A stretch of DNA of 36,310 nucleotides from Elusimicrobiota bacterium (GTDB taxonomy: Bacteria > Elusimicrobiota > Elusimicrobia > O2-12-FULL-59-9). Where the stretch lies: NCBI GenBank assembly GCA_016206405.1, contig JACQRQ010000268.1, positions 1 to 36,310 on the forward strand, written 5' to 3'. The notes beneath the pieces are model-generated. The model made no database searches. It was given only the letters and a program-made list of their open reading frames with translations, and was not told where the DNA came from. Numbering within the stretch: position 1 is the first letter of the stretch; each line of letters starts with the position of its first letter. Made by a program: the position numbers and the translations under genes. Below are positions 3,149-31,609 of this stretch, piece after piece.

Positions 3149-3174
3149 GTATTCATACATGAGGAGGCGCTGAT

Positions 3175-4293: not shown

Positions 4294-4302
4294 GGGGAGG
4301 AG

Positions 4303-7373: not shown

Positions 7374-7376
7374 GCC

Positions 7377-8979: not shown

Positions 8980-8981
8980 CC

Positions 8982-9626
8982 ATGCCTGAAACCGCTGAAA
9001 AAAATATTCCATCGAGTTGGGTCTACCGCTACCAAAACGGGCTCTACGTGAATTTGACCAATCGCTGTCCGACCGCCTGCGCCTTCTGCATCAAGAGCGC
9101 GTGGAAGATGAGGTATCGAGGATACGACTTGCGGCTGCGCAAAGAGCCGGCGGCGCAGGAGGTGCTGCGGGAGGTGGCCGGAGCGGCCGCTTTCGGCGAG
9201 CTCATCTTCTGCGGCTACGGAGAACCCACCTACCGGCTTCAAGAAATGCTGGAAATCGCCCGCCATCTCAAGGCGGAATGGAAAAGGCGGCCCGACGCGC
9301 CTCGCATCCGGCTCAATACCGTCGGCCTGGGCAGCCTCATTCATGGGCGCGACATCGTCGCCGATTTGACCGGCAGCATTGATTCCGTCTCCGTCAGCCT
9401 CAACACGGCCGACCCAAAACAGTGGCTGAGCCTGATGCGGCCGGCGGCGCCGTACCGCAAGGAAGGCTTTGAAAGCGTGCTGCGCTTCATCCGCCTATGC
9501 GCGCGGCTTTTGCCCGAAACCTGCGTGACCGCCGTGGACCTGCCGGAAGTGGACATCGCCAAGTGCAGGTCCACAGCGCGCGCTTTAGGCGCCAAGTTCC
9601 GCCTGAGACCATTATTGGACCCGTGA
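8982..9626 (+). CDS. Radical SAM protein of the TatD-associated family
   Basis: LYVNLTNRCPTACAFC, L.L.KEP, FCGYGEPT, IRLNT.GLGSLIHGRDI and SVSLN motifs; starts 2 nt after the moaA stop. Confidence 0.82.
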   Translation: MPETAEKNIPSSWVYRYQNGLYVNLTNRCPTACAFCIKSAWKMRYRGYDLRLRKEPAAQEVLREVAGAAAFGELIFCGYGEPTYRLQEMLEIARHLKAEWKRRPDAPRIRLNTVGLGSLIHGRDIVADLTGSIDSVSVSLNTADPKQWLSLMRPAAPYRKEGFESVLRFIRLCARLLPETCVTAVDLPEVDIAKCRSTARALGAKFRLRPLLDP

Positions 9627-15922: not shown

Positions 15923-15931
15923 TGTTATACT
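15923..15931 (+). promoter_or_regulatory. Extended -10 promoter for the radical SAM operon
   Basis: TGtTATACT ending 9 nt before the ATG at 15941; no SD and no good -35. Confidence 0.5.
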
Positions 15932-15940
15932 ATCTTCCGC

Positions 15941-16966
15941 ATGCGCGCGACGGCGCTGGAAATTCCTCTCGTCTCACCTCCCGGCAATTTGCCGGGCCGG
16001 ACTTCCAGCGGCCTGGAAGGAGCGATACTTCGCGCTCTGGCGTACGCGGACGTCTTCGACTACCCGCTGTCTTTGGAAGAAATCCACCGCTACCTGGACG
16101 GATCGCAAGCCTCCAAAGAAGAAACGCTCTCCATTTTGTCGAGCCATCGGATGCGCCGGGAGGTCGGCCGGCTGCGGGGCTTGTATGCGCTGGCGGGGCG
16201 CGAAAATCTGGCCGGGACGCGCCTTCGCCGCGCCCAATTTTGCGCCCGGCTGTGGCCGCGGGCGCTGCGATACGGCCGCTGCATCGGCCGGCTTCCCTTC
16301 GTGCGGCTGGTCGCCGTCACGGGCGGCCTGGCGATGAACAACGTGGACCCCGATGGAGACGTCGACATCGATTATTTCATCGTCACGGCGCCGCGGCGGT
16401 TGTGGCTCTGCCGCTTGGCGGTTCTGGCTCTGACCAAGGCCGCCTCCCGGTTCGGCTTCCGGCTTTGCGCCAATTACTTTCTTTCCGAACAGGCGATGCG
16501 GGTGCCTGAAAGAAATCTTTACACCGCACGGGAAATCTGCCAGATGGTTCCCGTGGCGGGCATGGAAACTTATAGAGAACTTCGCCGGCTCAATGATTGG
16601 ACCTCCGATTTCCTGCCAAACGCGGGCCAAGAACCCGATACCGGCTTTCTTAATAAGCGTTGGGCTCCCGCTCCGGCCGTCCGGGAACCTCTCCAACGTC
16701 TGGCTGAAGCAACGTTAAGAAGGAGGGCTTTCGACCCCCTCGAAGGCTGGGCCATGAACCGCCTCTCTAGAAAACTGGTCAAGCTAAGCATCTTGGCCGA
16801 AGCCGAAGCGCGGGCCACCTTCACTCCCGATTGGCAAAAATCGGTGCGACTGGGCAAATATCCCGCAATCATGGAAGCTTTCCAGCGGCGGCTTGACCGC
16901 CTCGGGCTTGCGGAACGTGGGCCGGAGCGCGGCCGTCAAAAAATCCTGCTTCCCGCTTTCCAATGA
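15941..16966 (+). CDS. Uncharacterised protein with a Pol-beta-type nucleotidyltransferase motif
   Basis: VAVTGGLAMNNVDPDGDVDIDYFIVT fits hG[GS]..DxD; LAYADVFDYPL N-terminus, CANYF and NLYTARE segments. Confidence 0.65.
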   Translation: MRATALEIPLVSPPGNLPGRTSSGLEGAILRALAYADVFDYPLSLEEIHRYLDGSQASKEETLSILSSHRMRREVGRLRGLYALAGRENLAGTRLRRAQFCARLWPRALRYGRCIGRLPFVRLVAVTGGLAMNNVDPDGDVDIDYFIVTAPRRLWLCRLAVLALTKAASRFGFRLCANYFLSEQAMRVPERNLYTAREICQMVPVAGMETYRELRRLNDWTSDFLPNAGQEPDTGFLNKRWAPAPAVREPLQRLAEATLRRRAFDPLEGWAMNRLSRKLVKLSILAEAEARATFTPDWQKSVRLGKYPAIMEAFQRRLDRLGLAERGPERGRQKILLPAFQ

Positions 16967-18558
16967 AGATATTGATCGCTCAACCCTATTTCAGGGTCCT
17001 GGACCCGGCCGAGTGGAAAAACCAGATGCCTTATCCGGCTCTGAGCGCGCTTTACGCGGCGACCGTCCTGCGCGGCTTGGGGCACGATATCCATTTTTTC
17101 GACGGCATGCTGGCTTCACGCCCAAAAAACCTGGATGACGAACTGCGGGATCTTCGGCCCGACCTTTTTTTGCTCTTGGACGACGATTTCAACTATCTGA
17201 CGAAGATGTGCCTGTCCAACATGCGCCGCGCCGCGCTCAAAGCTCTGGAAACAGCCCAGGAACTGGGCATTGCTGCCTTTATTCACTCCTCCGACGCCGC
17301 CGATCACCCGCGGCCGTATCTGGAACGAGGGGCATGGGCGGTGATTTTGCAGGAAGCGGAGAGCGCCCTTCCCGACGTCATCACCGCCATCGAAAAGGGA
17401 AATTTCAAGCAAACCCGCGAAAAAATACCGGGACTGCTTTTGGGGGGCGGCGAACGGAGTCCAAAAAGGGAGGCGCTCAAGGATTTGGATCTTCTGCCGG
17501 AGCCGGATTATGATTTCGTCGACCTCGCCGCCTACAGGAAAATTTGGATTAAAAACCACGGATATTTTTCGCTCAACATCTCCACGGCCCGGGGCTGTCC
17601 CTTCGGCTGCAATTGGTGCGCCAAACCTCTTTATGGCCAAGCCTACCACAGCCATTCCCCCGCCAGAGTGGCCGGACGCATGCGTCGCTTAAGCCGGCGC
17701 TACAACGCCGACCATTTCTGGATCACCGACGATATCTTCGGTTTGAAGCCCGGTTGGCTCAGGGAGTTCGCCCGCGAATGCGCCTCTCAAGACGCGCGCG
17801 TTCCATATAAATGCCTGTCCCGGGCCGATTTGCTTCTCCGGGACGGCACGGTGGAGCTTCTAAAGCGTTCCGGATGCAGAACCATCTGGCTCGGAGCCGA
17901 ATCCGGCAGCCAGAAAGTGTTGAACGCCATGGAAAAAGGCGTTTCGGTGGAGCAGATCTACGAGGCGGCGCGCCTGGTGCGCCGCGAAAACATGGAGATC
18001 GCTTTTTTCCTGCAGATCGGGTACCCGGAAGAAACATGGGACGATATTTCGCTGACGCGGAAAATGGTCCGGGACTTGACGCCGGACGGCCTGGGCATTT
18101 CCGTCTCCTATCCGCTTCCCGGCACTAAATTTTTTGAGCGGGTATCCAGCCGGCAGCTCTCCAAAACCCGCTGGACCCACTCCAAGGATTTGGATCTTTT
18201 GTTTGCCGGAACCTACGGACGGCAATTTTACCGGTTTCTGCAGCGCTTTATTCACGCCGAGCACCGTATTTTCAGGATCTGCAGAAACAAACAATGGCGG
18301 CAATGGCATCGCCTGGCGGCCTCCATCTTGAGATGGACGTTCTACGGCGCGCTGTTGGCGATCAAGTCTTGCGTGGAGCGTCCCGCCCGCCCAGCGCCCC
18401 GCGTCCGATCGAACACTCGATCACTCGACCACTTGAGCACTGATCACTCTACCGCTCGCCCACTTTACCACTCTACCACTCTGCCGCCGTATCACTCTAT
18501 CACTCTACCACTTTACCACTCTACCACTGGTGGACAAGTTAAGGTGGACTCAATATGA
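16963..18558 (+). CDS. Cobalamin-binding radical SAM protein 1, with repeat-derived C-terminal tail
   Basis: N-terminal B12-binding-like domain (PYPALSALYAA), ARGCPFGCNWC, DDIF, GAESGSQ and YPLPGT; ATGA overlaps at both ends. Confidence 0.9.
   Translation: MKILIAQPYFRVLDPAEWKNQMPYPALSALYAATVLRGLGHDIHFFDGMLASRPKNLDDELRDLRPDLFLLLDDDFNYLTKMCLSNMRRAALKALETAQELGIAAFIHSSDAADHPRPYLERGAWAVILQEAESALPDVITAIEKGNFKQTREKIPGLLLGGGERSPKREALKDLDLLPEPDYDFVDLAAYRKIWIKNHGYFSLNISTARGCPFGCNWCAKPLYGQAYHSHSPARVAGRMRRLSRRYNADHFWITDDIFGLKPGWLREFARECASQDARVPYKCLSRADLLLRDGTVELLKRSGCRTIWLGAESGSQKVLNAMEKGVSVEQIYEAARLVRRENMEIAFFLQIGYPEETWDDISLTRKMVRDLTPDGLGISVSYPLPGTKFFERVSSRQLSKTRWTHSKDLDLLFAGTYGRQFYRFLQRFIHAEHRIFRICRNKQWRQWHRLAASILRWTFYGALLAIKSCVERPARPAPRVRSNTRSLDHLSTDHSTARPLYHSTTLPPYHSITLPLYHSTTGGQVKVDSI
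18414..18535 (+). repeat. Octamer tandem array, copy 4 (14 units plus cactggtggac end), inside a CDS
   Basis: cactcgat-cactcgac-cacttgag-cactgat-cactctac-cgctcgcc-cactttac-cactctac-cactctgc-cgccgtat-cactctat-cactctac-cactttac-cactctac-cactggtggac. Confidence 0.92.
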
Positions 18559-20015
18559 GCGACATCCTTTTATCGCACGCTTATTTCATCGCCGAAGACC
18601 CCCGGGAGCAAGGGATCATGAAGCCTTATCCTCCTCTGGGCCTGCTCTACATCAGCTCCCACCTCAAAGCCAAGGGCTTTGCCGTGGACCTCTTCGACGG
18701 CACTTTCAAAAGCATGCCTGACTTCGAAAACCACCTCTGGACGACGCGCCCCCCCGTGACGGGCCTGTACTGCACGTTAATGAGCAAGCCTCACGTCCTG
18801 AAAATGATCCAACTGTGCAAGGCCGCGGGAAGCCGGGTTATTTTAGGAGGGCCTGAGCCGCCGCCATACGCCCTCGAGTACCTTCGCTCCGGCGCCGACG
18901 TCGTCGTGCATGGCGAGGGGGAACTGGCGCTGCAAGAGCTCATCCCCCATCTCAAGCGCTTCGGCGCCGCGGGTCTCAACTCCATTGAGGGCATTTCCTT
19001 TCTTGACGAGGACGGCCGCTTGGTTCAAACGCCGCCGCGAGCCCAAATTATAAACCTCTCCCAACAGCCTTGGCCGGACCGCGAAGCCATCGACATGGAC
19101 CGCTATCTGGGGGCGTGGAAAACGCATCACGGATCAAGCTCGGTCTCGCTCATCACGGCCCGCGGCTGCCCCTATACCTGCGCCTGGTGCAGCCACTCCG
19201 TCTTCGGCGAAACTCACCGCCGCCGGCAGCCCGGGGAAGTCGCCGAGGAAATCGCCTGGCTCCAAAATAAATACGCCCCGGACCGGCTTTGGTACGCCGA
19301 CGACGTCTTTACCATCCATCGCGGCTGGATTCTGGAATTCGCAAGGGAGCTAAAAAAACGCGGCCTTAAAATTCCCTTTGAATGCATTTCTCGGGCCGAC
19401 CGCCTCGATGACGCGCTCATCGCCGCGCTTTGCGAAATGGGCTGCTTCCGGCTCTGGATAGGCGCCGAAAGCGGGTCCCAGAAAATCCTCGACGCCATGC
19501 GGCGCCGGACCACGATTGAAGACGTCCGATTAAAAACCAGGAGCCTGCAAAATAACGGCATTCAGGTTGGGATGTTCGTCATGCTCGGCTACGAAGGCGA
19601 GCAATGCTCCGACATCGAGGCGACGGTGGACCACCTCAAAAAGTCCGCTCCGGATGTTTTCTTGAGCACGGTCGCCTATCCCATCAAAGGCACCCGCTAT
19701 TATGAGGCCGTTTCGGATAAAATCGTTTCCAGCTTAAGCTGGCCCGCGCGCACCGACCGCGACCTCAAAATATCGGGCCGGCGCTCCAAAAGGTTCTATG
19801 CCCACGCGACCCGCTGGATGGACAACGAGGTGAATTTCCATAAATTGCGGGTCCAAAATTCTCTCAACCTTCCCCGCATGCTCAAGCTCTTGGCCAACGC
19901 CAAGCGCGGCCGTCTCGGCATGTGGTGGACCCGCAACGAGACGGAGGAGGACCCGTCGCAAGGCGCCGGCGGGCGCGGCTGGCCCGCCCGAGACCGGGCG
20001 GAGGCCGCATGGTGA
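18555..20015 (+). CDS. Cobalamin-binding radical SAM protein 2
   Basis: PYPPLGLLYI, GGP, GEGE, ARGCPYTCAWC, DDVF, GAESGSQ and YPIKGT. Confidence 0.92.
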   Translation: MSDILLSHAYFIAEDPREQGIMKPYPPLGLLYISSHLKAKGFAVDLFDGTFKSMPDFENHLWTTRPPVTGLYCTLMSKPHVLKMIQLCKAAGSRVILGGPEPPPYALEYLRSGADVVVHGEGELALQELIPHLKRFGAAGLNSIEGISFLDEDGRLVQTPPRAQIINLSQQPWPDREAIDMDRYLGAWKTHHGSSSVSLITARGCPYTCAWCSHSVFGETHRRRQPGEVAEEIAWLQNKYAPDRLWYADDVFTIHRGWILEFARELKKRGLKIPFECISRADRLDDALIAALCEMGCFRLWIGAESGSQKILDAMRRRTTIEDVRLKTRSLQNNGIQVGMFVMLGYEGEQCSDIEATVDHLKKSAPDVFLSTVAYPIKGTRYYEAVSDKIVSSLSWPARTDRDLKISGRRSKRFYAHATRWMDNEVNFHKLRVQNSLNLPRMLKLLANAKRGRLGMWWTRNETEEDPSQGAGGRGWPARDRAEAAW

Positions 20016-20815
20016 GCCGGGCGCAGGAAGCGTCCCCTTTCGACGCGGTCGCCCGGGATTACGACCGCACCTTCACTTTTACGACTCTCGGCCGGATGCT
20101 GCGCGCTCGAGTTTGGGAGCACTTGGCCGAGCATTTCAAGGCGGGCGAGCGCGTCCTGGATTTGGCGTGCGGCACCGGCGAAGACGCCGTCTGGCTGGCC
20201 CAACGAGGCGTACGGGTCGCCGCCGCGGACGCTTCCGGAACAATGCTCGACATCGCCCGCGCCAAAGCCGCGCGCGCCGGGATTGCCGGCGGGATAGAAT
20301 TTAGAAGCCTGCGCATCGAACGACTGCCGGCCTATGCCTCCCAACAGCCCCCCTTTTCTTTTGACGGCGCCTTCTCCAATTTCGGAGGACTCAACGCGGT
20401 GGAAGACAGAACGCCCGTCTTTGAGGCTTTGTTCCGCCTGCTTAAACCCGGCGGCAAGCTGATTCTGGTCGTGATGGGCCCCTGCTGCCCCTGGGAGATC
20501 GCCGGAAATATCCTGCGCCTTGAGCCGCGCAAAGCTTTCCGGCGCTGGAAGAAAAGCGCGCCGGCGATCATCGGCGGCCGCGCCCTTCGCGTCCGCTATC
20601 CGTCGGCCGCAAAGCTTCAAAAGGAGCTTTCCGGAAATTTCCGCCTCATCGATGCGCAAAGCCTGGGCTTATGGCTGCCGACGACCGAGTTCAGGGGGCT
20701 GGCGCACCAATGGCCCCGTCTCTTCGCTTTTCTCAATCGCCTGGAAAAATCTACCGCCTCCATCACCCGAGGCTGGGGAGACCACTCCATTGTCATCGCC
20801 GCGAGAAAGCCTTAA
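20009..20815 (+). CDS. Class I SAM-dependent methyltransferase
   Basis: FDAVARDYD, VLDLACGTGED and FDGAFSNFGGLN. Start placed at the ATG overlapping the previous stop. Confidence 0.88.
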   Translation: MVSRAQEASPFDAVARDYDRTFTFTTLGRMLRARVWEHLAEHFKAGERVLDLACGTGEDAVWLAQRGVRVAAADASGTMLDIARAKAARAGIAGGIEFRSLRIERLPAYASQQPPFSFDGAFSNFGGLNAVEDRTPVFEALFRLLKPGGKLILVVMGPCCPWEIAGNILRLEPRKAFRRWKKSAPAIIGGRALRVRYPSAAKLQKELSGNFRLIDAQSLGLWLPTTEFRGLAHQWPRLFAFLNRLEKSTASITRGWGDHSIVIAARKP

Positions 20816-21527
20816 CAACGCCCATCGCCTGACAGGCTGGAGAGCCCGTTGGACGCGCCGCTGGCTGTCGCTGAAATACCGGATTTTTCACCGAGGGTAT
20901 CGTCGTCTTGTCTTGGAAAAAATCCCCGAAGCGGCGTTCGTGGTTCTTCCGGACGTCTTCAACCCCGTTTTATTTCGCATCGGCCCGTTTTTGGGAAGGG
21001 CCGCTTCCAAGCTGATCGCCTCAAAGGCGGCTGCCTCCGCCGCGAACGCGCCCATCCGGGTTTTGGATGTCGGAACCGGTTCCGGGGTCTGCGCCGTCCT
21101 CGCCGCCCAGGCAGGAGCGGCGGCGGTGGCCACAGACATCAATCCGGAGGCGGTGCGCTGCGCCAAAATCAACGCCCTGCTCAACGACCTCGAAGAGCGC
21201 ATCGAGGTGCGGCGGAAAAACTTATTAGAGGACCTCCATGGAGAAAGGTTCGACCTTGTGTTGTTCAGCCCGCCGTTTTATATCGGCCGGCCTCGAGACT
21301 GGCTGGACTGCGCCTGGCGCAGCGAGGACGTCTTTGAGCGCTTCGCGGAGGGTTTGCCGGCGGCGTTAAAACCGGACGGGCAAGCCCTGATCGCCCTTTC
21401 CACCGATGGAGCCGGCCAATATTTCTTAAATTTGATGCGGCAGCGCGGATTCGACGTGTCCCTCCATCAGCAAGAGCATTGGGGAAATGAAATCGCCGCC
21501 ATCTACAGCGTCCGGCCCCAAGGATAA
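20790..21527 (+). CDS. HemK/PrmC-like class I methyltransferase
   Basis: VLPDVFNP, VLDVGTGSG, DINPEAV and FDLVLFSPPF (NPPY-like). Start uncertain; in-frame TTG at 20790 has GGAG upstream. Confidence 0.8.
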   Translation: MSSPRESLNNAHRLTGWRARWTRRWLSLKYRIFHRGYRRLVLEKIPEAAFVVLPDVFNPVLFRIGPFLGRAASKLIASKAAASAANAPIRVLDVGTGSGVCAVLAAQAGAAAVATDINPEAVRCAKINALLNDLEERIEVRRKNLLEDLHGERFDLVLFSPPFYIGRPRDWLDCAWRSEDVFERFAEGLPAALKPDGQALIALSTDGAGQYFLNLMRQRGFDVSLHQQEHWGNEIAAIYSVRPQG

Positions 21528-21541
21528 AGGACGGCGCGCCG

Positions 21542-23017
21542 ATGATTATTTTATACAACCCTCAAAGCAGCGCGGCCCGCAAGCCTATTCTTCCGATGTC
21601 GCTCCTGGCTCTGGCCGCGCAGTTGGAAGGGCGCCGCCCTTGCCGGATCATCGACGGCAACTTGGACGATCATCCGGTGGACAGCATCGCCCGGATCATC
21701 GGCGAGAATTCTGCCGGCGTTCTTGGAGTCACGGTGATGCCCGGCCCCCAATTGTTGGCCGCTACGCGGGACTGCCGGGCGATCAAAAACCGCTTTCCCC
21801 ACGTGACCATCGTTTGGGGGGGCTACTTCCCCACGCAGCACCCGCGCCCCTGCCTCAACGCCCCCTACGTGGATTTCGCGCTCCAAGGACACGCTGACTT
21901 CGCCTTGCATGCCTTCTTGGAGATGCTCGAGGGGCGCATGCGCCCATCGGAGGTGCCGGGATTGGTCTACCGGGATCCATCCGGCGGCTCCGTGCGGCAG
22001 GTTCCGGCGGGACCGGTTCCCCACCCCGCGCATCTGCCCCCTTTTCCCTATCACCGGGTGCCGATGCAGCGCTATATCCGCAACACCTATCTCGGTTCGC
22101 GCACCTTGCCGGACCACACCAGTTACGGCTGCCCGTTTTTTTGCAATTTCTGCGGCGTCGTCAAACTCGCCAACGGCAGGTGGCTGGCCCAGTCGGCCGA
22201 ACGCATCGCCGGGAATGTGGCGATGATGATGCGCCGCTGGAACGTCAACGCCGTCGAGTTTTTCGACAATAATTTCTTTGTCCAAGAGGCTCGCGTGGCC
22301 GAGTTCGCCGACCGCATAAAGAAGTTTGGAATCGGCTGGTGGGGAGAGGGGCGCATCGACACCATGCTCCAATTCGACGATCGGACCTGGCGCGCTATGG
22401 CGGAAAGCGGCTTGCGCATGGTTTTTTTGGGCGCCGAATCCGGTTCCGATGAGACGCTCAAAAGAATGAAAAAGCAAGGGACAGCCTGCGCCGCGAAAAC
22501 GCTGGCGATGGCCCAAAAATGCGCCCAATGGGGAATTATTCCGGAATTTTCCTTCATGCTCGGAAATCCGCCGGACCCGGAAAAAGACGCGCAAGCGACG
22601 ACGGCCTTCATACGCAAGCTCAAAAAAATCAATCCTCAAGCCGAGATAATCCTTTATCACTACACCCCGGTTCCGCTTCAGGGAGAACTTTACGAGGCGG
22701 CACAGGGACGAGGATTCCGCTTTCCTGAACGCTTGGAGGAATGGGTGCGCCCGGAGTGGCAGCGGGTAGCCGCGCATCGCCCCGAATCCATGCCCTGGTT
22801 CTCCTCCAACCTGACAAGCCGTATTCGTAATTTTGAAAAAGTGCTCAATGCCTATTACCCCACGGCCACCGACATCAAGCTGGGGAAACTGCATAGGTTG
22901 TTCTTGCGCGGCCTGAGCGCTTGGCGCTACCGCCTGCATTTTTACCGACTGCCCTGGGAACTGCGCGCCGCAAACCGCCTCTTGAAATATCAGCGCCCGG
23001 AAACTTCGGGATTTTAA
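21542..23017 (+). CDS. Cobalamin-binding radical SAM protein 3
   Basis: LPMSLLALAA, VWGGYFPT, SYGCPFFCNFC, DNNF and GAESGS; AAGGA RBS. Confidence 0.9.
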   Translation: MIILYNPQSSAARKPILPMSLLALAAQLEGRRPCRIIDGNLDDHPVDSIARIIGENSAGVLGVTVMPGPQLLAATRDCRAIKNRFPHVTIVWGGYFPTQHPRPCLNAPYVDFALQGHADFALHAFLEMLEGRMRPSEVPGLVYRDPSGGSVRQVPAGPVPHPAHLPPFPYHRVPMQRYIRNTYLGSRTLPDHTSYGCPFFCNFCGVVKLANGRWLAQSAERIAGNVAMMMRRWNVNAVEFFDNNFFVQEARVAEFADRIKKFGIGWWGEGRIDTMLQFDDRTWRAMAESGLRMVFLGAESGSDETLKRMKKQGTACAAKTLAMAQKCAQWGIIPEFSFMLGNPPDPEKDAQATTAFIRKLKKINPQAEIILYHYTPVPLQGELYEAAQGRGFRFPERLEEWVRPEWQRVAAHRPESMPWFSSNLTSRIRNFEKVLNAYYPTATDIKLGKLHRLFLRGLSAWRYRLHFYRLPWELRAANRLLKYQRPETSGF

Positions 23018-24117
23018 ATGCTCGCCCGCCGGCTTCTCCAACCGCTTAAGACCGCCAATATGAGATTTTTTCCGGATTCTTTCCCCTACGCTCCGGATTG
23101 GGTCGTTCTGGGGGTCAACAACGCCTGCAACCTGCGTTGCAAAATGTGCGACGTGGGCGCCGGCTACAAGGCGAGCAACTTCTACCACAATATGACTGGC
23201 GCAAAGCCCTTGAACATGCCCCGGGAGCTTATTTTTAAGATCATTGATGAGACCGCGCGCTATTTTCCGAAAGCTAAGCTGGGCTACGGCTTCACCGAAC
23301 CGCTGCTTTATCCGCATCTGGTCGAATCCATTCGCTATGCCAAACAAAAACGGCTAACCACGGCGCTGACGACCAACGCCTTCGGATTGGAGCGCCTGGC
23401 GGTGGATTTGGCGTTGGCGGGGCTGGATGAAGTGAGCGTCTCGCTGGATGGCCCGCCGGAAATTCACAACGCCATCCGGGGCCACGCGCGCTCCTTTGCC
23501 GGCGCTTTTGAGGGAATCAAAAAGATTTTCAAGATCAAAGGCCCTGCGCCCGAAGTTTCCATATTTTGCGCCGTCACGGAGTGGAACATCGGCCACTTGG
23601 TGAGATTTGCGGAATTGTTTAAATCCTTTCCGCTCCGCCGGCTCGGTTTTTGCATACGAACTTTACCCCGCCCGATGTTGCCGGGGCGCACAATGCCCTC
23701 TATGGTCGTCTATACCCCGCCACCATTTCCAGTATGAAGGAAATCAACATCGAAAGAATGGACCTAAACGTCTTGTGGCGCGAGATCAAAGCCGTCGAGG
23801 AACAACCCTTTCCCTTCCCGGTCGTTTTTTCACCGAGGCTGATAGATTTTCAGGCGCTACAAGATTTTTACCTAAAACCCGGCAAATTCATCGGCGCGCG
23901 CTGCTACGATGCCTTCCGGATGCTCATGATCAAATCCGACGGTTCCGCCATGCCGGCCCACAGCCGTTGTTACAAAATAGAGGCCGGGAATCTATATCAG
24001 CAGAGTTTAAAGGATATTTGGCGATCCGAAGCGATCCGCCGCTTTCGAAAGACGCTGACCGCAGCCGGCGGTCTTTTGCCCGCCTGCGCCAGGTGCTGCA
24101 GCGCCTTCTCCACCTGA
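23018..24117 (+). pseudogene. Radical SAM/SPASM(twitch) protein split by a 1-nt frameshift near 23647-23651
   Basis: ORF 23018-23737 has CNLRCKMC, EPLL, TTNA and SLDG..IHNAIRG. Coding sense continues in the -1 frame (23650-24117) with C..IKSDG..P..C..GNL...SLKDIW..CARCC. The junction is a T5 run; could be a sequencing error. Confidence 0.75.
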
Positions 24118-24120
24118 CCC

Positions 24121-25326
24121 ATGGGACCCCTGAGAATTCCAGCCGTCCGTCTTGCGCTCATCGCCGTCCTGGCGGCGTATTGGGCGTTTTTGGGCGTGGT
24201 TCCGGCATTCAACGAAATCCGAAGCGATTTTCCAAACTACTACGCGGCCGCAAGAATCGCCCTCCAAAACCCGGACGACGCCCGGCTCTACGACGACGCC
24301 TGGTTCCAGGCTAAACTCATGCAGGCCGGATTTGCCCACCCCGGCAAGTTTTCCCCCCATCCTCCCACGACGGCAATTCTCTACATGCCGCTTGCCTTTC
24401 TGCCGCCGCTGGCCGCGTTCAACACGATGACCGCCTTGAACCTTCTTTTCGTGCTTCTGGCCGTCATTTATTTATCCCGCGGGCTGTCTGCCCCCTGGAC
24501 GGAGTCGTCGCTGTTGATTCTCTTATCCGGCCAAGGGCTCGTCAATTGCTTCCTGCTGGGCCAAATTTATGCAGCCGTTTCCTTGTCCGTCATTATGGGT
24601 TATTATTTTTATGCGCGTGGAAACAAAGCGGCGGCCGGCATTTTTTTCGGGCTTTTTATTCCCATTAAATATTTCCCCGTCGTTTTCTTGCCCTACTTCG
24701 CCGTTAAGAAGGAGTACCGGCTTCTGCTTTACAGCGCCATTCCCGGCGCTCTCTTCGCGGCGGCCAGCCTATGGCTGTGGGGATGGGAAACTCACCGGCG
24801 TTTTCTGAACGAGGCTTTCGGCCCCCATCTTTTATCCAACCTGTCCCTGCAAAGCCCGTTTGCGCCGGCCTTCCAATCCTTGGACGGGTTGCTGCGCCGA
24901 TGGATGATCATGGACGCGGCGGCCAATCCGCGGCCGTGGATAGATTCTCAAGCGGGATTCTGGGCCGCCAAGCTCTTAGTTCTTTTTGCGCTCGGCGCCC
25001 TCGCGGTTCGCAGGTTCATTCAATATATGCATGATCCGGCCAAGCAGGCTCTCTGCCTTATTTTGCCCGCGCTCTTGGCGCTTGTCATCGCGCCGGCCAC
25101 CGCCACCTACCATTTTCTGCTCCTTTGGCTGCCCGTGGGGCTTCTCTTGAAGCATTACTCCAACCAGGGTCGGCATGATTTATCGCATCTGACGCTGATG
25201 GCCTATGCGGCGATCGGGTTCATTCCTTACGGCCTGTTCTATCCATTTGCCGGGGCAGGGGGGTGGGCCTGGCTGGCTTATCCGCGCTGGTTTTTGATTT
25301 TGGCGATGTTTCTTATGGCGGCGTAG
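24121..25326 (+). CDS. GT87-like (GT-C fold) membrane glycosyltransferase
   Basis: SDFPNYYAAA after TM1, F..PP...LYMPL, LGQ, IKYFP and QSL motifs; multiple TM segments. Confidence 0.75.
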   Translation: MGPLRIPAVRLALIAVLAAYWAFLGVVPAFNEIRSDFPNYYAAARIALQNPDDARLYDDAWFQAKLMQAGFAHPGKFSPHPPTTAILYMPLAFLPPLAAFNTMTALNLLFVLLAVIYLSRGLSAPWTESSLLILLSGQGLVNCFLLGQIYAAVSLSVIMGYYFYARGNKAAAGIFFGLFIPIKYFPVVFLPYFAVKKEYRLLLYSAIPGALFAAASLWLWGWETHRRFLNEAFGPHLLSNLSLQSPFAPAFQSLDGLLRRWMIMDAAANPRPWIDSQAGFWAAKLLVLFALGALAVRRFIQYMHDPAKQALCLILPALLALVIAPATATYHFLLLWLPVGLLLKHYSNQGRHDLSHLTLMAYAAIGFIPYGLFYPFAGAGGWAWLAYPRWFLILAMFLMAA

Positions 25327-25333
25327 AACTCAC

Positions 25334-26929
25334 ATGGATCGCGCTTCGACCTTTGGAATTCTCGCGCGGATTTGGCAATTTGCCGCCGCTCCGGTGACGT
25401 TGTGGCTGGTGGCGTCCCGATTTGCGCCGGAGGCGCAAGGCTACTACTATGCCTTCGGGAGCTTGATCGCCTTGCAGGTGTTTTTGGAGTTGGGATTGGG
25501 CACGGTCATCTCCCAGTTTGCCGGCCATGAATGGGCCCGGCTGGCGCTCGATGAAAAGGGGCGCATCGCGGGAGCAACGGACGCCCTCTCGCGTTTGGCC
25601 GGCCTGGCGCAATCGGCCTTGCGGTGGTATGCGGCCGCCGGCGCCTTGGCGGCGGCGGGATTGGCGCTGGCCGGTTTTATCTTTTTCCGCGACGCGCCGG
25701 CGTCGCACATCCGCTGGGCGCCTGCCTGGCTGGCGCTTTGCCTGCTCACCGGCTTCAATATACTCCTATTGCCGGCGTGGCATCTTTTGGACGGCTGCAA
25801 TCAAGTGGAACACACGCACGCCTATCGTTTTTTTCAAAGCGTGCTGGAAACTTTTGCGCGCTGGAGCTTTGTTTTGGGGGGAGCGGGATTGTGGACGCCG
25901 GCTCTAGCCTGCTCGGCTTCCATGGGTTGCGGTTTGGTCCTGCTGCGCTCAAGGTATTGGAACTTCTTTCGATGCCTTTGGACTGCGCCGGCTTGCGAGC
26001 GCATCGACTGGTTCAAGTCTGTCTGGCCGATGCAATGGAGAACGGCGATCACCTGGATCAGCGGCACCCTCATATTTTCGACGATGACTCTGATCGTTTT
26101 TCGCTCGCACGGCCCCGTCATCGCGGGCCAAATGGGCATGACTTGCGCGCTCATGGCCGCGCTGACTAACGCGGCGTTTATGCTGGTTTCGACAAAAACT
26201 CCCCGTTTCGCCATGCTCATCGCCCGGAAAGACTATCCGGCCCTGGACCGGCTGTTCGTAAAATCAGCCCGGGGCGCGCTGGCGGTCATCAGCCTCGGCG
26301 CGGGAGCCATGGCGGCCATGCTCTTCCTCTTGCGCCTTTTCAACCACCCGCTGGCCGCGCGGCTCTTGCCGCCGCTGCCGGCGGGCCTGCTGCTTTTGGC
26401 GGCGGTCTTCAACCAATTAAACTTTTGCTATGGAGCCTACCTAAGGGCCCACCGGCGGGAACCTTTCATGCTCACCACCGCCGCCGGCGCCGGACTCTTC
26501 TGCGCGGCCGGATCTTATTTGGCAAGCAGCTACGGTCCGGTCGGACTGGCGGCCGGATTCTTGGCCGTCAGCGCGATGATGTTGACGGCTAATTCAATGC
26601 TTTTCTTTAGACTGAGGACCGCATGGCATGCGGATCAGGACGCGACGGACAGGCGTTTTGACATCATCGCGCCGATATCGGCGGGAGATTCGATGACGGG
26701 GATGCCGGCCCCGCGCAGCGCCTCCGCCTTGGCCGCCCAGGTCCCGCTTCCGCCCTCGATGATGGCGCCCGCGTGGCCCATGCGGCGGCCGGCGGGGGCG
26801 GTCCTTCCGGCGATGAAGGCGCAGACGGGTTTGGACATATGCGCCTTGAAAAATGCGGCGGCTTCTTCTTCGGCGCTTCCGCCGATTTCGCCGATGATGA
26901 GCACCGCATCCGTTCCGGCGTCGTCTTGA
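25334..26929 (+). CDS. Wzx/MOP-superfamily flippase-like membrane protein, with read-through tail antisense to sucD
   Basis: About 12 hydrophobic segments; [28 protein letters not shown] and [10 protein letters not shown]. The membrane portion ends near 26630 but no stop occurs until 26929. Confidence 0.72.
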
Positions 26930-27519
26930 AACAGGGATAAAATTTTAACGAAGTCGGCGCCCAAAACCGGATCGCCGCCTATGCCGACCACCGTGGACTG
27001 CCCAAGCCCGTGCCGGGTCAATTGCCAGACGGCCTCATAAGTGAGAGTCCCGGAGCGCGAAACGATGCCCACGGAACCGGGCTTGTGTATGTATCCCGGC
27101 ATGATGCCCACCTTGGCCTGTCCGGGGCTGATGACGCCCGGGCAGTTGGGCCCGATGAGCGTCGTCTCCGGCCGACGCCCCGCCAATAAACGCTTGACTC
27201 TGGCCATGTCCCTGACCGGGATGCCTTCGGTGATGCACACAATCAGCCTGACGCCGGCGTCGGCCGCTTCCAGCACCGCATCGGCGGCGAACGGGGGCGG
27301 GACAAAAATCAGGGACGTATCGGCTCCCGTCCGCCGGACCGCCTCGGCGGCCGTGTTAAAGATGGGCACTCCAAAAATAAGCCCGCCGCCTTTCCCGGGA
27401 GTGACCCCCGCCACCACTTTGGTGCCGTAGGCGGCGCATTGCTCGGCATGAAATTTGCCGGCGGAACCGGTGATCCCCTGGACCAGAACCTTCGATTTGT
27501 TATTGACTAAAATGGACAT
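26635..27519 (-). CDS. sucD: Succinyl-CoA synthetase alpha subunit
   Basis: [30 protein letters not shown] and RMGHAGAII. Confidence 0.97.
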
Positions 27520-27524
27520 GATAT

Positions 27525-27580
27525 TGAAAGTGGTAGAGTGGTAGAGTGGTAGAGTGATCGGGTGATCAAGTAATCGAGTG
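27525..27580 (-). repeat. Octamer tandem array, copy 5 (reverse orientation)
   Basis: tgaaagtg-gtagagtg-gtagagtg-gtagagtg-atcgggtg-atcaagta-atcgagtg on the + strand. Confidence 0.9.
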
Positions 27581-27622
27581 AACGATGGGTTGACGTTGGG
27601 TTTTGAGTTCCGCTGAATCCAA

Positions 27623-28810
27623 TCACTTTACCACCTTTACCACTTTACCACTATCTTTCCGGGCGGCTTTCACCGCTTTCTGAGCCGCATCTTCAAGGTC
27701 GGCGGCCTGCGTCAAGGGCAGCCCGGATTGCGCTAAAAGCTTGCGCCCTTCCTCGACCCGCGTTCCCTCCAGGCGCACGATCAGGGGAACATCGAGCCGC
27801 ACGTGTTCCAATGCCTTCAAAATCCCCTCGGCGATGACGTCGCACTTCATGATGCCGCCGAAAATGTTGACCAAGACAGCCTCCACCTTGGGATCCTTCA
27901 GCAAAATCTCGAAGGCCTCGCGGACTTGTCCGACATTGGCGCCGCCGCCCACGTCCAAAAAATTGGCCGGTTCTCCGCCCGCCAGCTTGACGATATCCAT
28001 GGTCCCCATGGCCAAGCCGGCCCCGTTGACCATGCAGCCGATGTTGCCGTCCAAGCTGATGTAGGAAATTCCCGCTTTCTTGGCCGCGCGCTCCAAATCG
28101 GTCGCGTCGAGGTCCTCCCGGACCGAGGGATGTCGAAAAAGGCCGTTGTCATCGAGGGCCACTTTGGCGTCCAGAGCGATCCATCGGAAATCCGGGGTTG
28201 TCGCCAGCGGATTGATTTCTACCAGGCTCGCGTCCTGCTCGAGAAAAAGCCTGGCCAGGGAAACGGCGATGGCGCAAAATCCGGAGACGAGCTCCGGGGC
28301 GAGCTCGAGGCCGAAGGCCAGGCGGCGCGCCTGAAACGCCTCCAGGCCGCCCCCGGGGTCCAAGGGCTCGGTCAAAATAGCCTGCGGTTTGTCCCGGGCG
28401 ACGTTTTCAATTTCCATGCCGCCCTCCTTGGACGCGATCATCAGCGGACAGCCCCGCTTGCGGTCCATGACCACCGACAGGTAATATTCTTTGTCGATCT
28501 TCACGGCGGCTTCGGCCAAAATCTGATTAACGACGACGCCCCGGCCCGCCGTCTGGTGGGTCGTCAGAGACATGCCGATCATCTTCTGCGCCAAAGCGCC
28601 GGCCTCTTCCGCCGTGCGCGCCGTTTGAATGCCGCCCGCTTTCCCGCGGCCCCCGGCAAAAACCTGCGCCTTGAGCACCCACGGCCCGGCGCCTGCTTTC
28701 TTGATCGCCACGGCCGCCTCCGGCGCCGAAGAAAATACGCCGGCCGACAAGGGAACGGGCACTCCGTATTCCTTTAATAGGCGTTTGGATTCAAATTCCA
28801 GAAGCTTCAT
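27623..28810 (-). CDS. sucC: Succinyl-CoA synthetase beta subunit
   Basis: [41 protein letters not shown] and [10 protein letters not shown]. Confidence 0.97.
27624..27653 (+). repeat. Octamer tandem array, copy 6, encoding the SucC C-terminus
   Basis: cactttac-cacctttac-cactttac-cacta; the minus strand reads SGKVVKVVK up to the stop. Confidence 0.85.
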
Positions 28811-29982
28811 ATCTTGGAGCGGTCCCCCCGCCTTTTTTCGACCCGCTCATAGGAGCGCGGCTCCGGGCCGACATATTCCGCGTTGGGCCGGAATAGACGG
28901 TTTTCTTGCCAATATTCCAGCACATGCGCCGTCCAGCCGGCGACGCGGGCGATGGCAAAAATGGGCGTAAACAAATCCGGGGGGATTCCCAGGGCCTGGT
29001 ACACCAGGCCGGAGTAGAGGTCGACGTTGGCGTAAATGCCTTTGGAACCGACCTGCGCCTGCATGACCTCTTCCAGCCGCACGTTGATATTAAATAGCCG
29101 TTCGCTGTCGGTGCCCGCGACCACGTTGCGCGCGTATTCCTTAAAAACCCTGGCCCGCGGATCGACCGTCTTGTAAATCCTGTGGCCAAAGCCCATAATC
29201 CTGTATTTTTTCGAGCGGAAAGACTCGCGCACATAGGCCTCCACTTTGGAGGCGTCGCCGATGGCGTCGATCATCTTGAGAACCTCTTCGTTGGCCCCGC
29301 CGTGCAGGGGCCCCTTCAGAGTTCCTATGCCGCTGACGACGGCGGAATACAGATCCGAAAGAGTGGAGGCCGTCACCAGCGAAGAGAATGTGGAGGCGTT
29401 CATCTCGTGGTCGGCATGCAGGATCAAGGCCACATCCATGAGCCTGGCCTCGTCTTTGGTCGGCTGCCTGCCGGAAAGCATATACAGAAAATTTGCCGCG
29501 TGGTCCAAGGAAGGATGGGGAGCGACGGCGTTTTGGCCGCGCCTGAGCCGGTGGAAAGCGGCCATCATGGTCGGAAATTGCGCGGTCATGCGGACGGCGC
29601 GCTCTTCGTTGGCCGCGACGCCGTTATCCGGGTTTTTATCCAGGTTGCCTAAGAGCGAGGCGAGCGTGCGCAAAACGCCCATCGGAGCCGCGTCTTTGGG
29701 CAGCCGCTCGATGTGGGGCGCCAACTCCTCGGGAAGAGCGCGGCATTCGAGAAACCGCTTCTTGAGCGCTTTGAGCTCCGGGGCCGTCGGGAATCTCCGC
29801 CGCCATAAGAGAAAACACACCTCCTCGAAGGAGGAGTGTTGCGTCAATTCCTCGATGGAATAACCCAGGTAGTACAGCCGCCCTTGCTGCCCATCAATGG
29901 AGCACAGCCCCGATCGGGCCGCCGTAACTCCCTCCAGGCCCGCGGAAAAACCGGGTTTTGCGGCAAGTTTTGTGGCGCCCAT
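28807..29982 (-). CDS. gltA: Citrate synthase (short type; 2-methylcitrate synthase not excluded)
   Basis: GLEGV, LHADHEMNAST, GPLHGGAN, MGFGHRIYK.DPR and NVDLYSG. Confidence 0.9.
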   Translation of the reverse strand: MGATKLAAKPGFSAGLEGVTAARSGLCSIDGQQGRLYYLGYSIEELTQHSSFEEVCFLLWRRRFPTAPELKALKKRFLECRALPEELAPHIERLPKDAAPMGVLRTLASLLGNLDKNPDNGVAANEERAVRMTAQFPTMMAAFHRLRRGQNAVAPHPSLDHAANFLYMLSGRQPTKDEARLMDVALILHADHEMNASTFSSLVTASTLSDLYSAVVSGIGTLKGPLHGGANEEVLKMIDAIGDASKVEAYVRESFRSKKYRIMGFGHRIYKTVDPRARVFKEYARNVVAGTDSERLFNINVRLEEVMQAQVGSKGIYANVDLYSGLVYQALGIPPDLFTPIFAIARVAGWTAHVLEYWQENRLFRPNAEYVGPEPRSYERVEKRRGDRSKI

Positions 29983-30109: not shown

Positions 30110-31609
30110 ATGCCCATCGCCCTCAGCATTCTCGGCGCCGCCGTCTGCGTCCTATTAAACGCCTTCTTTGTCTTGGCGGAGTTCGCCATCATCAAAGTGC
30201 GCGTCACCCGCATCGAGCAGTTGGCCCAGAGGGGCGTGCGCCGCGCCCAAGTGACGCGGGAAATCGTCCGGCAGACGGAAGCCTACCTCTCGGCCACGCA
30301 GATCGGCATCACGATCGCGAGCCTGGGGCTGGGCTGGCTCGGAGAGCCGGCCTTCGCCGTTATTTTCGCCCCTATTTTCGTCAAGCTCAACCTGGCTTCC
30401 GGCGCGGCGGCGCAAACCGCGGGCTTCGCGGCCGCTTTCGTGTGGATCACTCTGCTGCACGTCATTTTGGGCGAGCTGGTTCCCAAATCCATCGCGATCC
30501 GCAGAGCCGAAGCCTCGGCCCTCCTCGTTTCCGGGCCGATGCGCCTGTTTTACACTATAGCCTCCCCTTTCATCAACTTGTTTAACACCCTCGCCGAGGG
30601 GGTGCTGTTCCTGCTGGGTATAGCCCCCTTAAAACACCTGGACTTGGCCCACTCGGAGGAAGAGCTCCGAATTATTTTGGCCGCCTCTCAGGACGTGGGC
30701 TCCATCCCTCCCCAAAGGATATTCTTTTTCGAAAATGCCCTGGCGCTGGCCAAAAAGCACACGCGCCATATCATGACTCCCCGGGAAAAAGTCGTCTTCC
30801 TGTCCGTGCAGCAGGACTGGCCGCAAAACCTGGAGCTTATCCAAGCCACGCGCCATACGCGCTATCCCCTGTGCGACGGCGGCATCGACCAAACTCTGGG
30901 CATGATCCACGTGAAGGATTTATGCCACCAGGTGTCTTCCTCGCCCGATCTTTTGCGCCTTAAGCGCCAAATCCTCAAGGTGCCGGCGAGTTTCCCCGCG
31001 GAGCATCTGTTGGGCGAATTCCAGCGGCAGAAAACGCACATGGCCATGGTCACCGAGGACGACGGCCGCGTCGCCGGCATGGTCACGCTTGAAAACGTCC
31101 TAGAGCAGCTCGTCGGCAATATCGAGGATGAATTCGACCGGCCGAGGCCCATCGATCTCGGCCGGCTTTTTCATGAGGGAGTGGTCGTTCTGGATTTGAA
31201 GGCGGAAACGAAAAAGGAAGCCATCGCGGCCCTGGTGCATGCGCTGTGCAAGGCCAAAGGGCTTCAAAACGAACACCAGATTTTTTCTTCGGTTTGGGGC
31301 CGGGAAATCAGTTTTTCAACGGGCATCGGAAACTCGGTCGCCCTGCCGCACAGCGCGATCGCGGGTCTCACAAAATTCATGCTCGCTTTCGGCCTGTCAA
31401 GAAACGGCATAGACTTTCAGGCGCCGGACAAGCAGAAGACCCATCTCATTTTCATGATATTGTCTCCCATGGAACAGGCGGGGGACTACCTGCAGCTGCT
31501 GGCCAAGCTCAGCCGCCTGATTCGCAATTCAACCATCCGCGAACAAATAATGACCACGACCCGCAAGGAAACCCTGCTGGACCTTTTCGACGCCTTGGAT
31601 AAATTCTAG
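30110..31609 (+). CDS. CNNM/CorB (hemolysin-family) transporter with CBS pair and C-terminal PTS EIIA domain
   Basis: NAFFVLAEFA, QIGITIASLGLGWLGEP, GELVPKS, IMTPR, HTRYPL and G.IEDEFD, followed by RE..STGIGNSVALPH, GIDF.APD and LQLLAKLSRL (EIIA Ntr/Fru type). Confidence 0.88.
   Translation: MPIALSILGAAVCVLLNAFFVLAEFAIIKVRVTRIEQLAQRGVRRAQVTREIVRQTEAYLSATQIGITIASLGLGWLGEPAFAVIFAPIFVKLNLASGAAAQTAGFAAAFVWITLLHVILGELVPKSIAIRRAEASALLVSGPMRLFYTIASPFINLFNTLAEGVLFLLGIAPLKHLDLAHSEEELRIILAASQDVGSIPPQRIFFFENALALAKKHTRHIMTPREKVVFLSVQQDWPQNLELIQATRHTRYPLCDGGIDQTLGMIHVKDLCHQVSSSPDLLRLKRQILKVPASFPAEHLLGEFQRQKTHMAMVTEDDGRVAGMVTLENVLEQLVGNIEDEFDRPRPIDLGRLFHEGVVVLDLKAETKKEAIAALVHALCKAKGLQNEHQIFSSVWGREISFSTGIGNSVALPHSAIAGLTKFMLAFGLSRNGIDFQAPDKQKTHLIFMILSPMEQAGDYLQLLAKLSRLIRNSTIREQIMTTTRKETLLDLFDALDKF

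Follow-up and report, generated by a model that had tools for sequence, protein, structure and literature searches.

What is made by a run of nine closely packed genes in an Elusimicrobiota bacterium, and does the product belong to the cell envelope? The DNA in question (assembly GCA_016206405.1, contig JACQRQ010000268.1, positions 1 to 36,310, the whole stretch of 36,310 nucleotides (nt) being called the window below) comes from a genome bin of 2.29 Mb in 299 contigs that is 81% complete. At 15941-26929 it carries genes g1 to g9, which encode a nucleotidyltransferase (NTase)-like protein, three radical S-adenosylmethionine (SAM) enzymes of the cobalamin (B12) type, a SPASM radical SAM enzyme, two methyltransferases, a GT-C glycosyltransferase and a Wzx/MOP-like membrane protein. 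The explanation favoured here, with a probability of about 0.6, is an uncharacterised cytoplasmic cassette that tailors a cell-envelope glycan and that is joined in this genome to a flippase and a GT-C enzyme.

The operon and its conserved core

The nine genes are located as follows.

g1, 15941-16966, + strand: 341-aa NTase-like protein with an N-terminal winged helix, uncharacterised family
g2, 16963-18558, + strand: class-B-type radical SAM enzyme, 531 aa
g3, 18555-20015, + strand: B12-binding radical SAM enzyme, 486 aa
g4, 20009-20815, + strand: UbiE/CpaM-like class I SAM methyltransferase
g5, 20790-21527, + strand: HemK2/MTS-type methyltransferase with an SPPF motif
g6, 21542-23017, + strand: B12-binding radical SAM enzyme, 491 aa, the third paralogue
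g7, 23018-24117, + strand: radical SAM/SPASM enzyme, frameshifted (frame A 23018-23737, frame B 23650-24117)
g8, 24121-25326, + strand: GT87-family GT-C glycosyltransferase, 401 aa
g9, 25334-26929, + strand: divergent Wzx/MOP-like membrane protein

They form a real operon. The overlaps are 4 nt at both g1/g2 and g2/g3, 7 nt at g3/g4 and 26 nt at g4/g5, the last two under starts inferred from orthologue lengths (ATG 20009 for g4; TTG 20790 for g5, whose orthologues have a median length of 243 aa); the longest open reading frames (ORFs) begin further upstream, at GTG 19922 and at 20520. The other junctions are gaps of 14 nt (g5/g6), 0 (g6/g7), 3 (g7/g8) and 7 nt (g8/g9). An initial annotation, made from the sequence alone, had described nine co-oriented genes with overlaps or gaps under 15 bp, and with the inferred starts this is borne out: all junctions either overlap by 4-26 nt or leave 0-14 nt between the genes. 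A hydropathy scan counted at least 7 hydrophobic segments for g8, at least 8 for g9 and none for any of g1-g7, and the core of the cassette is accordingly predicted to be soluble and cytoplasmic.

The most conserved gene of the cassette is g3. Its 120 listed relatives are 62-96% identical over the full length, the named ones coming mostly from Chloroflexota of the class Anaerolineae, and 453 stretches in a collection of species-representative genomes encode a relative. The window proteins were compared by tblastn with the best 80 g3 loci; the counts of co-occurrence exclude L013, a sister record from an Elusimicrobia metagenome-assembled genome (MAG) that served as the comparison genome within the genus. 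Genes g1-g2-g3-g4-g6 were found together in 16 other loci, 10 of which have g5 as well; all six are thus present in L013 and in 10 further loci of Chloroflexota, Acidobacteriota and one Zixibacteria MAG (L074), where g1-g6 stand in the order of the window. Pairwise linkage was also frequent: in 32 of 38 loci g2 follows g1 directly, 34 of the 44 g2 loci with room for g1 have it, g4 is found in 46 of the 62 g3 loci having at least 3 kb of downstream room, and g6 orthologues of 45-61% identity occur in 27 other loci. A variant in Ardenticatenaceae retains only g3, g4 and g5. Judged by gene neighbourhoods, the conserved unit is g1-g6, i.e. the NTase-like protein, three B12-type radical SAM enzymes and two methyltransferases, and the treatment of all nine genes as one unit in the initial annotation was too wide.

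Selfish modules (BrnT/BrnA, HicA/HicB-like and PDDEXK_3 nucleases) were observed between core genes (g2/g3, g3/g4) in Chloroflexota loci, at L021 9398-9998, L070 8850-9152, L024 9591-9962, L016 784-1191, L018 11469-11932 and L022 5389-5821, and L044 has a D12 DNA methyltransferase gene between core genes.

In its own phylum the cassette is rare. Only one of 200 other sampled genomes had a g3 match at E <= 1e-80, with 41% identity, and close copies of the cassette were seen in only two (G001 and G021) of 40 sampled relatives, while in a quick, unfinished tree the window g3 was sister to Acidobacteriota copies (SH-aLRT 85). Because the distribution is patchy across phyla and sparse in Elusimicrobiota, horizontal transfer fits these data. 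The halves of the operon differ between the window and L013. The flanks and g1-g3 are 91-96% identical at the DNA level, 20658-24899 is 81% identical, and 24899-26669 could not be aligned; protein identity is 85-96% for g1-g3, 54% for g8 and 48% for g9. Since g8 and g9 have diverged so far in both DNA and protein, the 3' half of the operon is, by this comparison, mosaic and fast-changing, as is usual for surface-glycan genes. In addition, L013 carries an extra FkbM-type methyltransferase (L013 17442-18293, - strand) between g9 and sucD, which is absent from the window.

Linkage to envelope glycan genes

The neighbourhoods of the core were compared in 52 long loci with at least 8 kb of flank, with 40 evenly spaced 20-kb windows from two carrier genomes as controls. 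Eight families, including GT4, GT-C, Wzy_C, MOP flippase, phosphoglucomutase (PGM), PIG-L and phosphodiesterase, were searched with jackhmmer seeds. Any of the eight was found in 33/52 long loci against 7/40 control windows; for single families the counts were 10/52 against 0/40 for PMT-type GT-C, 6/52 against 0/40 for GT87 and 17/52 against 1/40 for MOP flippase. Whole carrier genomes have 0-8 GT87 and 0-5 Polysacc_synt matches each.

In 12 of the 52 long loci glycan genes are sandwiched between core genes, and the interleaved types are Wzy_C, GT4, PMT-type GT-C, Phosphodiest, PGM, GT87, MOP flippase, PIG-L, sulfotransferase and AlgX-like SGNH. For example, Wzy_C with TPR, GT4, PMT-type GT-C and Phosphodiest stand among the core genes of L066, GT87 and a second GT-C in L028, PGM in L021, and a MOP flippase in L032 and in L034, the latter also with sulfotransferase, GNAT, PIG-L and GT87. 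GT4 lies between g6 and g2 in four Chloroflexia loci. L086 holds GT4 and two proteins unmatched in Pfam, of which one is predicted to cross the membrane about 10 times. The Phosphodiest-family gene was found in 5 related loci, not in the window. As a separate observation, a protein family of ~390-410 aa that matches nothing in Pfam, and for which about 10 transmembrane segments are predicted, stands beside the core in 8 loci (L066 8826-9992, L086 6892-8133, L028 4051-5283, L044 17773-18999 and others); its members may be another polymerase or GT-C-like enzyme of the envelope.

A second link comes from g1 itself. All 6 proteins longer than 600 aa in the top 150 matches to the g1 profile are fused to GT2 (1), GT4 (4) or Wzy_C (1). 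Together with the enrichment, the interleaving and the contexts of g9 relatives given below, these fusions support the envelope direction which the initial annotation had proposed.

In the window the envelope side is represented by g8 and g9. The product of g8 matched PF09594 (GT87) with 91.9 bits against a cut-off of 25, is polytopic and is the sole GT87 above cut-off in the window genome; the GT87/GT-C assignment therefore stands, with donor and acceptor being predictions. For g9 the identification as a flippase is less firm. Its match to the NCBIfam model WZX_like is weak (51.1 bits against a cut-off of 300; E 1.1e-13, residues 8-406), no Pfam family matched, Polysacc_synt included, and the segments counted by the crude hydropathy scan compare with about 12 transmembrane helices expected of Wzx/MOP proteins. 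The g9 ORF extends 295 nt into the convergent sucD (26635-27519), with the codons after about 435 (~100) lying antisense to sucD; relatives of g9 are 443-475 aa long. What speaks for a flippase, besides the weak match, is the company of these relatives: homologues were found in 6 of 200 other genomes of the phylum, and all 3 annotated contexts are glycan clusters, namely NeuB/CMP-transferase, PEP-mutase/TagF-like (phosphonate) and GT2/RmlC. B12 radical SAM enzymes are present in two of the three, the NeuB cluster (two copies) and the GT2/RmlC cluster, and the NeuB cluster also holds a SPASM enzyme and a sugar C-methyltransferase. One locus of the same phylum deserves mention in its own right. 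L102 (G060:C3:214000-233900) encodes NeuB, a CMP-sugar synthetase-like protein, two B12 radical SAM enzymes and a SPASM radical SAM enzyme, and its operon continues with a TylC3-type sugar C-methyltransferase, an FkbM methyltransferase and a g9-type flippase; a radical-SAM-modified nonulosonic acid pathway is possible there.

The initial annotation had also asked whether GT87 and flippase genes accompany the radical SAM core elsewhere. At the level of families they do, as counted above; at the level of orthologues of g8 and g9 they do so in L013 only.

Predicted activities and alternative products

The NTase-like protein g1 has no Pfam or NCBIfam match, and the window protein gave no match to NTP_transf_2 (PF01909) even at E up to 5, the L074 orthologue reaching 20.2 bits against a cut-off of 21. 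An AlphaFold model built with 34 orthologues (pLDDT 85.7) consists of an N-terminal winged helix, a Pol-beta-type NTase domain and C-terminal helices. In Foldseek the minimal NTases MntA/MNT were best (prob 0.96-0.99, E about 1e-2), and nothing in the PDB search reached E <= 0.001. The exhaustive VIA-align placed ANT(4') 6nlt first for the NTase part, with Z 9.0 (the tool cautions that Z near 8 is middling), rmsd 3.2 and 112 aligned residues, followed by LinB (Z 6.7) and DrrA (Z 6.6), and its winged-helix matches cover residues ~20-88. LicD/fukutin-type phosphotransferases, considered as a further candidate, were not among the 50 VIA-align matches listed. Within the motif hG[GS]...DxD, G128, D142 and D144 are invariant across the 34 sequences. 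The NTase named in the initial annotation thus gains a Pol-beta/ANT(4')-type fold and an invariant motif, and lacks a family match; from fold and motif g1 is predicted to be an NTase. Because its profile finds 7045 clusters at E <= 1e-3 (3233 at E <= 1e-30) among 1.84 billion representative proteins and no family matches it, g1 is, by profile search, a member of a very large orphan family.

Proteins of the Pol-beta/ANT(4')-type fold transfer a nucleoside monophosphate (NMP) onto hydroxyl groups, and the fold is distinct from that of sugar-1-phosphate nucleotidylyltransferases. For this reason the "nucleotide-activated building block" of the initial annotation, if taken in the sense of a nucleoside diphosphate (NDP)-sugar, is not suggested by g1. 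ANT(4'), LinB and MntA come closest in fold to g1 residues ~100-310, with the G...DxD motif conserved in g1; they differ from it in that identity is just 11-14%, that g1 has an extra winged helix and no Pfam match, and that it stands beside a radical SAM gene, outside any resistance or toxin-antitoxin context.

The likeness to ANT(4') brings in a different product, a diffusible small molecule such as an aminoglycoside-like pseudo-sugar or a phosphonate, made by a logic of the Fom1/Fom3 type, with g8 and g9 unrelated or serving export. An NTase that adjoins a class-B radical SAM enzyme would suit it, as would the AprD4-like fold of g3 described below, scores of 58-99 bits of the radical SAM enzymes on the PhpK and Sden_1168 P-methylase models, and the Phosphodiest-family gene of five loci, a potential remover of a nucleotide handle. 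In fosfomycin synthesis a nucleotide handle is used by the Fom1/Fom3 pair, and the cytidylyltransferase domain of Fom1 is MobA/LicC-like. The pairing of a nucleotidyltransferase with a class B radical SAM enzyme is what the cassette shares with Fom1/Fom3 (Fom3 is listed in the available text of a 2026 review, PMC12931638) and suggests such a handle; the Pol-beta/ANT-type fold of g1 is a difference. The phosphonate pathway was rejected, phosphoenolpyruvate (PEP) mutase (TIGR02320) being above cut-off in none of 5 carrier genomes, one of which is the 81% complete window genome. The window also has no aminotransferase, inositol-phosphate synthase-type or other scaffold-forming genes, and both the fusions of g1 relatives and the envelope-assembly genes between core genes point elsewhere. 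A small-molecule product is therefore considered unlikely.

Of the radical SAM enzymes, g2, g3 and g6 matched PF04055 with 62.9, 67.2 and 40.0 bits (cut-off 29.5), and the B12-binding family PF02310 (cut-off 32.1) was found in g3 (52.5 bits) and g6 (44.5 bits). It was undetected by Pfam in g2, yet g2 aligns with g3 from residue 4 (32% identity over residues 4-427) and with the BchE model from residue 3. Cobalamin binding by the three is predicted from these matches. The motifs CPFGCNWC, CPYTCAWC and CPFFCNFC are present in their translations, and the statement that CxxxCxxC is intact in all four radical SAM enzymes, g7 included, proved correct.

A short repeat marks the end of g2:

18409-18528, + strand: 8-nt tandem repeat (CACTCTAC-like, about 10-15 copies) immediately ahead of the g3 start, coding for the low-complexity tail at the C-terminus of g2

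Gain or loss of copies would put the tail in another frame, with a possible effect on coupling to g3. Exactly at this repeat L013 shows a run of N (assembly gap), and an apparent g2-g3 fusion there (1009-aa ORF) was rejected as an artefact of the N run.

The radical SAM enzymes were scored on the NCBIfam equivalogs BchE, HpnJ, HpnR, PhpK, BzaD, ladderane-type, methyl-coenzyme M reductase (MCR) Gln methylase, AprD4 and ApyD, and none reached a named NCBIfam cut-off, the best scores being 120.9 (g2), 137.8 (g3) and 90.9 bits (g6) against cut-offs of 251-750 bits. The initial view that no characterised pathway has this gene set is in line with these scores and with the literature searches described below.

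The best model for g2 (residues 3-399) and g3 was BchE, and several database records label g3 relatives "Mg-protoporphyrin IX monomethyl ester cyclase"; together with weak CpaM (82.5 bits) and BchM matches of g4, this could be read as a cassette that builds or modifies a tetrapyrrole or corrinoid-type cofactor. The scores are far below the cut-offs of 481 (BchE) and 180 (CpaM), the record names are automatic annotation, and no tetrapyrrole genes were found in the window or in recurrent neighbourhoods, which makes a cofactor highly improbable.

A membrane lipid was weighed as another target, either a hopanoid tailored in the manner of HpnP/HpnR/HpnJ or a ladderane/tetraether-type lipid. HpnJ is a class-B-type radical SAM enzyme that acts on a sugar head group, and the PIG-L deacetylases near the core in 3-4 loci resemble the HpnK-HpnJ pair. 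There are weak matches to HpnJ (88-115 bits against a cut-off of 578), HpnR and the "ladder" lipid B12 radical SAM model, all far below equivalog cut-offs of 360-650 bits. The window genome does have a squalene-hopene cyclase (contig C129 4015-4974, 487 bits), but a full-length PF13243 cyclase is present in only 2/5 carriers (the window genome G000, and G044); G043 has a partial match of 29.5 bits, and G041, with the full six-gene core, reached 20 bits, no match in G041 or G042 being above cut-off. With the full-length cyclase missing in 3/5 carriers hopanoid tailoring by an HpnI/HpnK/HpnJ-like route was rejected, no recurrent lipid-synthesis genes were seen among the neighbours, and lipid targets in general are distinctly unlikely. 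Two more B12 radical SAM genes of the window genome, outside the window (C117 4629-5762; C293 2049-3161), could be hopanoid methylases.

The model of g3 (pLDDT 81.6) superposes on MgmA, TsrM, OxsB, TokK and CysS. The top fold was MgmA/QCMT 9ccb (E 1.2e-20), with AprD4 second, followed by TsrM, OxsB, CysS and TokK, and MgmA/QCMT is the closest solved relative of g3 by both sequence profile and fold, at 20% identity.

Of the two ordinary methyltransferases, both with class I methyltransferase domains, g4 matched Pfam Methyltransf_25 (63.6 bits), its CpaM score being that given above. g5 matched PF05175 (53.2 bits) and approached the NCBIfam cut-off for HemK2/MTQ2 (81.6 against 87 bits), with "FSPPF" in its translation; the SPPF motif is typical of methyltransferases that act on amino groups of nucleobases or glutamine, not on sugars.

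For g7 the two domains fall in separate frames, PF04055 (63.3 bits) in 23018-23737 and PF13186 SPASM (40.6 bits) in 23650-24117, so the initial annotation, which gave one SPASM radical SAM, had missed a frameshift. The break is a 1-nt deletion: a T5 run at 23646-23650 corresponds to T6 and an intact 366-aa ORF in L013. T5 is also found in a 612-nt Logan contig of groundwater run X1 with zero differences, which is not independent support since the run may be the source sample of the bin. As the gene is frameshifted, the g7 step is probably lost in the window genome. Orthologues of g7 occur only in L013 and two Acidobacteriota loci (L086, L089), with distant relatives in L070 and L027.

Could the substrate be a peptide or protein, either a ribosomally synthesised and post-translationally modified peptide (RiPP) or a protein C-methylated as in MCR or the polytheonamides? 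MgmA/QCMT is an MCR glutamine C-methylase, g5 resembles protein glutamine methyltransferases, SPASM enzymes such as g7 are common among RiPP maturases, and the radical SAM enzymes score 53-93 bits on the RiPP models ApyD and rSAM_ocin_1. A RiPP cluster was nevertheless rejected, as no conserved precursor-like small ORF stands beside the maturases: among 479 intergenic small ORFs of 79 loci the largest family occurs in 4 loci and is HicA/HicB-like, judged by sequence. The genes of the window operon are too closely spaced to leave room for a precursor between them, ORF scans of the window found no leader peptidase or RiPP recognition element, and the relatives of g1 are fused to glycosyltransferases. 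A peptide or protein substrate is accordingly quite improbable.

A defence system was dismissed as well, the PADLOC matches being at domain level only (methyltransferases to mad2, the radical SAM core to pVip, g3 to PDC-M51A with 48 bits). Among the 32 window ORFs scanned, PEP mutase, squalene-hopene cyclase and nonribosomal peptide or polyketide synthases were absent, as the initial annotation had stated.

Proposed pathway and its meaning

Tailoring of an envelope glycan is thus preferred, and the fold likeness of g1 to NTases that modify sugar hydroxyls (ANT(4'), LinB) and the additional FkbM-type methyltransferase of L013 were counted in its favour. Several points weigh against it. The solved protein nearest to g3 methylates a protein; the second-best fold match of g3, AprD4, does not bind cobalamin according to the available text of PMC12931638, which says that AprD4-like proteins lack it; and the motif of g5 is one that would suggest amino groups of nucleobases or glutamine. 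Outside the window, only L013 has g8 and g9 orthologues together with the core. The 33/52 and 7/40 counts come from loci that are phylogenetically related and so not independent, from seeds taken from the test loci and from controls of two genomes; 19/52 long loci have none of the eight families, and L074, with the exact six-gene core, is flanked by genes for FHA, VWA and DNA polymerase III delta proteins. Finally, genes for an initiating phosphoglycosyltransferase, for NDP-sugar synthesis, for a GT-A/GT-B transferase and for a polymerase are all absent from the window cluster.

The last point also separates it from known Wzx/Wzy and GT-C glycan assembly (O-antigen, capsule, S-layer glycan, PimE-type GT87), which it resembles in the GT87 protein g8, the Wzx-like g9 and the Wzy_C, PMT-type GT-C, GT4 and MOP flippase genes of related loci. 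The radical SAM enzymes are best compared with the sugar C-methylases GenK, GenD1 (GenD1/GntE), Fms7 and MoeK5, which are named in the available text of PMC12931638. They share the radical SAM core with CxxxCxxC (g2, g3, g6), the N-terminal B12-binding domain (g3, g6), probably unactivated sugar carbons as targets, and ordinary SAM methyltransferases alongside; they differ in that the cassette lies among envelope-assembly genes rather than antibiotic scaffold genes and has three paralogues with an NTase-like partner.

As far as the available text of that review goes, every group of B12 radical SAM enzymes with a characterised member includes C-methyltransferases, and nothing in sequence or structure separates methylating from non-methylating members (PMC12931638). 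On this ground C-methylation by g2, g3 and g6 is a prior, not a finding, and by analogy the chemistry of the cassette is probably C-methylating.

From gene content, conservation, glycan-gene linkage and fusions we infer a substrate, a chemistry and an order of steps as follows. The cassette would consist of three two-gene modules, the NTase-like g1 with radical SAM g2, radical SAM g3 with methyltransferase g4, and methyltransferase g5 with radical SAM g6, with the SPASM enzyme g7 as a fourth element in this lineage and in Acidobacteriota. At the cytoplasmic face, g1 would place an NMP on a hydroxyl of a sugar unit or lipid-linked precursor, as a recognition handle or for activation. Then g2, g3 and g6 would modify unactivated carbons, most likely by C-methylation, with ring contraction or dehydration as alternatives; g4 could add an O- or C-methyl group, g5 may place an N-methyl on a planar amino or amide group if the SPPF rule applies, and g7, where intact, would contribute an additional radical step. 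The nucleotide handle could be stripped by the Phosphodiest-family enzyme in the five loci which have it. The lipid-linked product would be flipped by g9 and transferred by g8 to an acceptor outside the membrane.

Other genes of the window were noted as well. A molybdoenzyme set of the nitrate reductase/nitrite oxidoreductase type occupies 2-5975 and 6270-9626, with a molybdopterin subunit, a 4Fe-4S subunit, a NarJ-like chaperone and an EB_dh haem subunit fused to cytochrome c, and is followed by MoeA, MobA, MoaA and a further radical SAM protein of 221 aa. Downstream of the operon, at 26635-29982 on the - strand, genes resembling those of succinyl-CoA synthetase alpha and beta adjoin a gene of the citrate synthase family; these could be ordinary tricarboxylic acid cycle genes or a citryl-CoA synthetase/lyase pair of the reductive cycle. 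A single 499-aa protein at 30110-31609 combines CNNM transmembrane, CBS and PTS EIIA-2 domains. Upstream of g1, where the initial annotation had placed one candidate promoter, the sigma-70 scan gave no + strand site, its sole match lying at 15902-15874 on the - strand, before a divergent CHASE2 cyclase gene; one weak candidate was read by eye.

15923-15931, + strand: candidate extended -10 element TGtTATACT, weak, 9 nt before the g1 ATG

B12-dependent radical SAM enzymes tailor antibiotics, cofactors, lipids and peptides. None of those listed in the available text of PMC12931638 acts on a cell-envelope polysaccharide, and its largest sequence groups are described as unexplored. Literature searches found no paper on a cassette of B12 radical SAM, NTase and glycan genes, nor on radical SAM tailoring of Wzx/Wzy/GT-C glycans; in its available part, an Elusimicrobia preprint (10.1101/765248) deals with sets of radical SAM genes next to nitrogenase paralogues and does not describe this cluster.

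A more specific form of envelope-glycan tailoring is put forward tentatively and is rather doubtful: that g1-g6 are a new and widespread decoration system in which a nucleotide tag is followed by several C-methyls, or by a carbocyclic rearrangement, introduced by the three B12 radical SAM enzymes. If this were true, the surface would carry a heavily alkylated, hydrophobic sugar not yet seen in any bacterial envelope, and the module would be portable between phyla, plugging into the flippase and GT-C enzyme of each host.

The cassette with its NTase-like partner is found in several hundred uncultured genomes, among them MAGs of Chloroflexota, Acidobacteriota, Zixibacteria and Elusimicrobia, which suggests that lineages dominant in sediments, groundwater and wastewater have a surface chemistry not yet described. 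Identification of the product would assign a function to a very large orphan family; novel radical chemistry on sugars could come to light with it, and possibly a biomarker bound to lipid or glycan.

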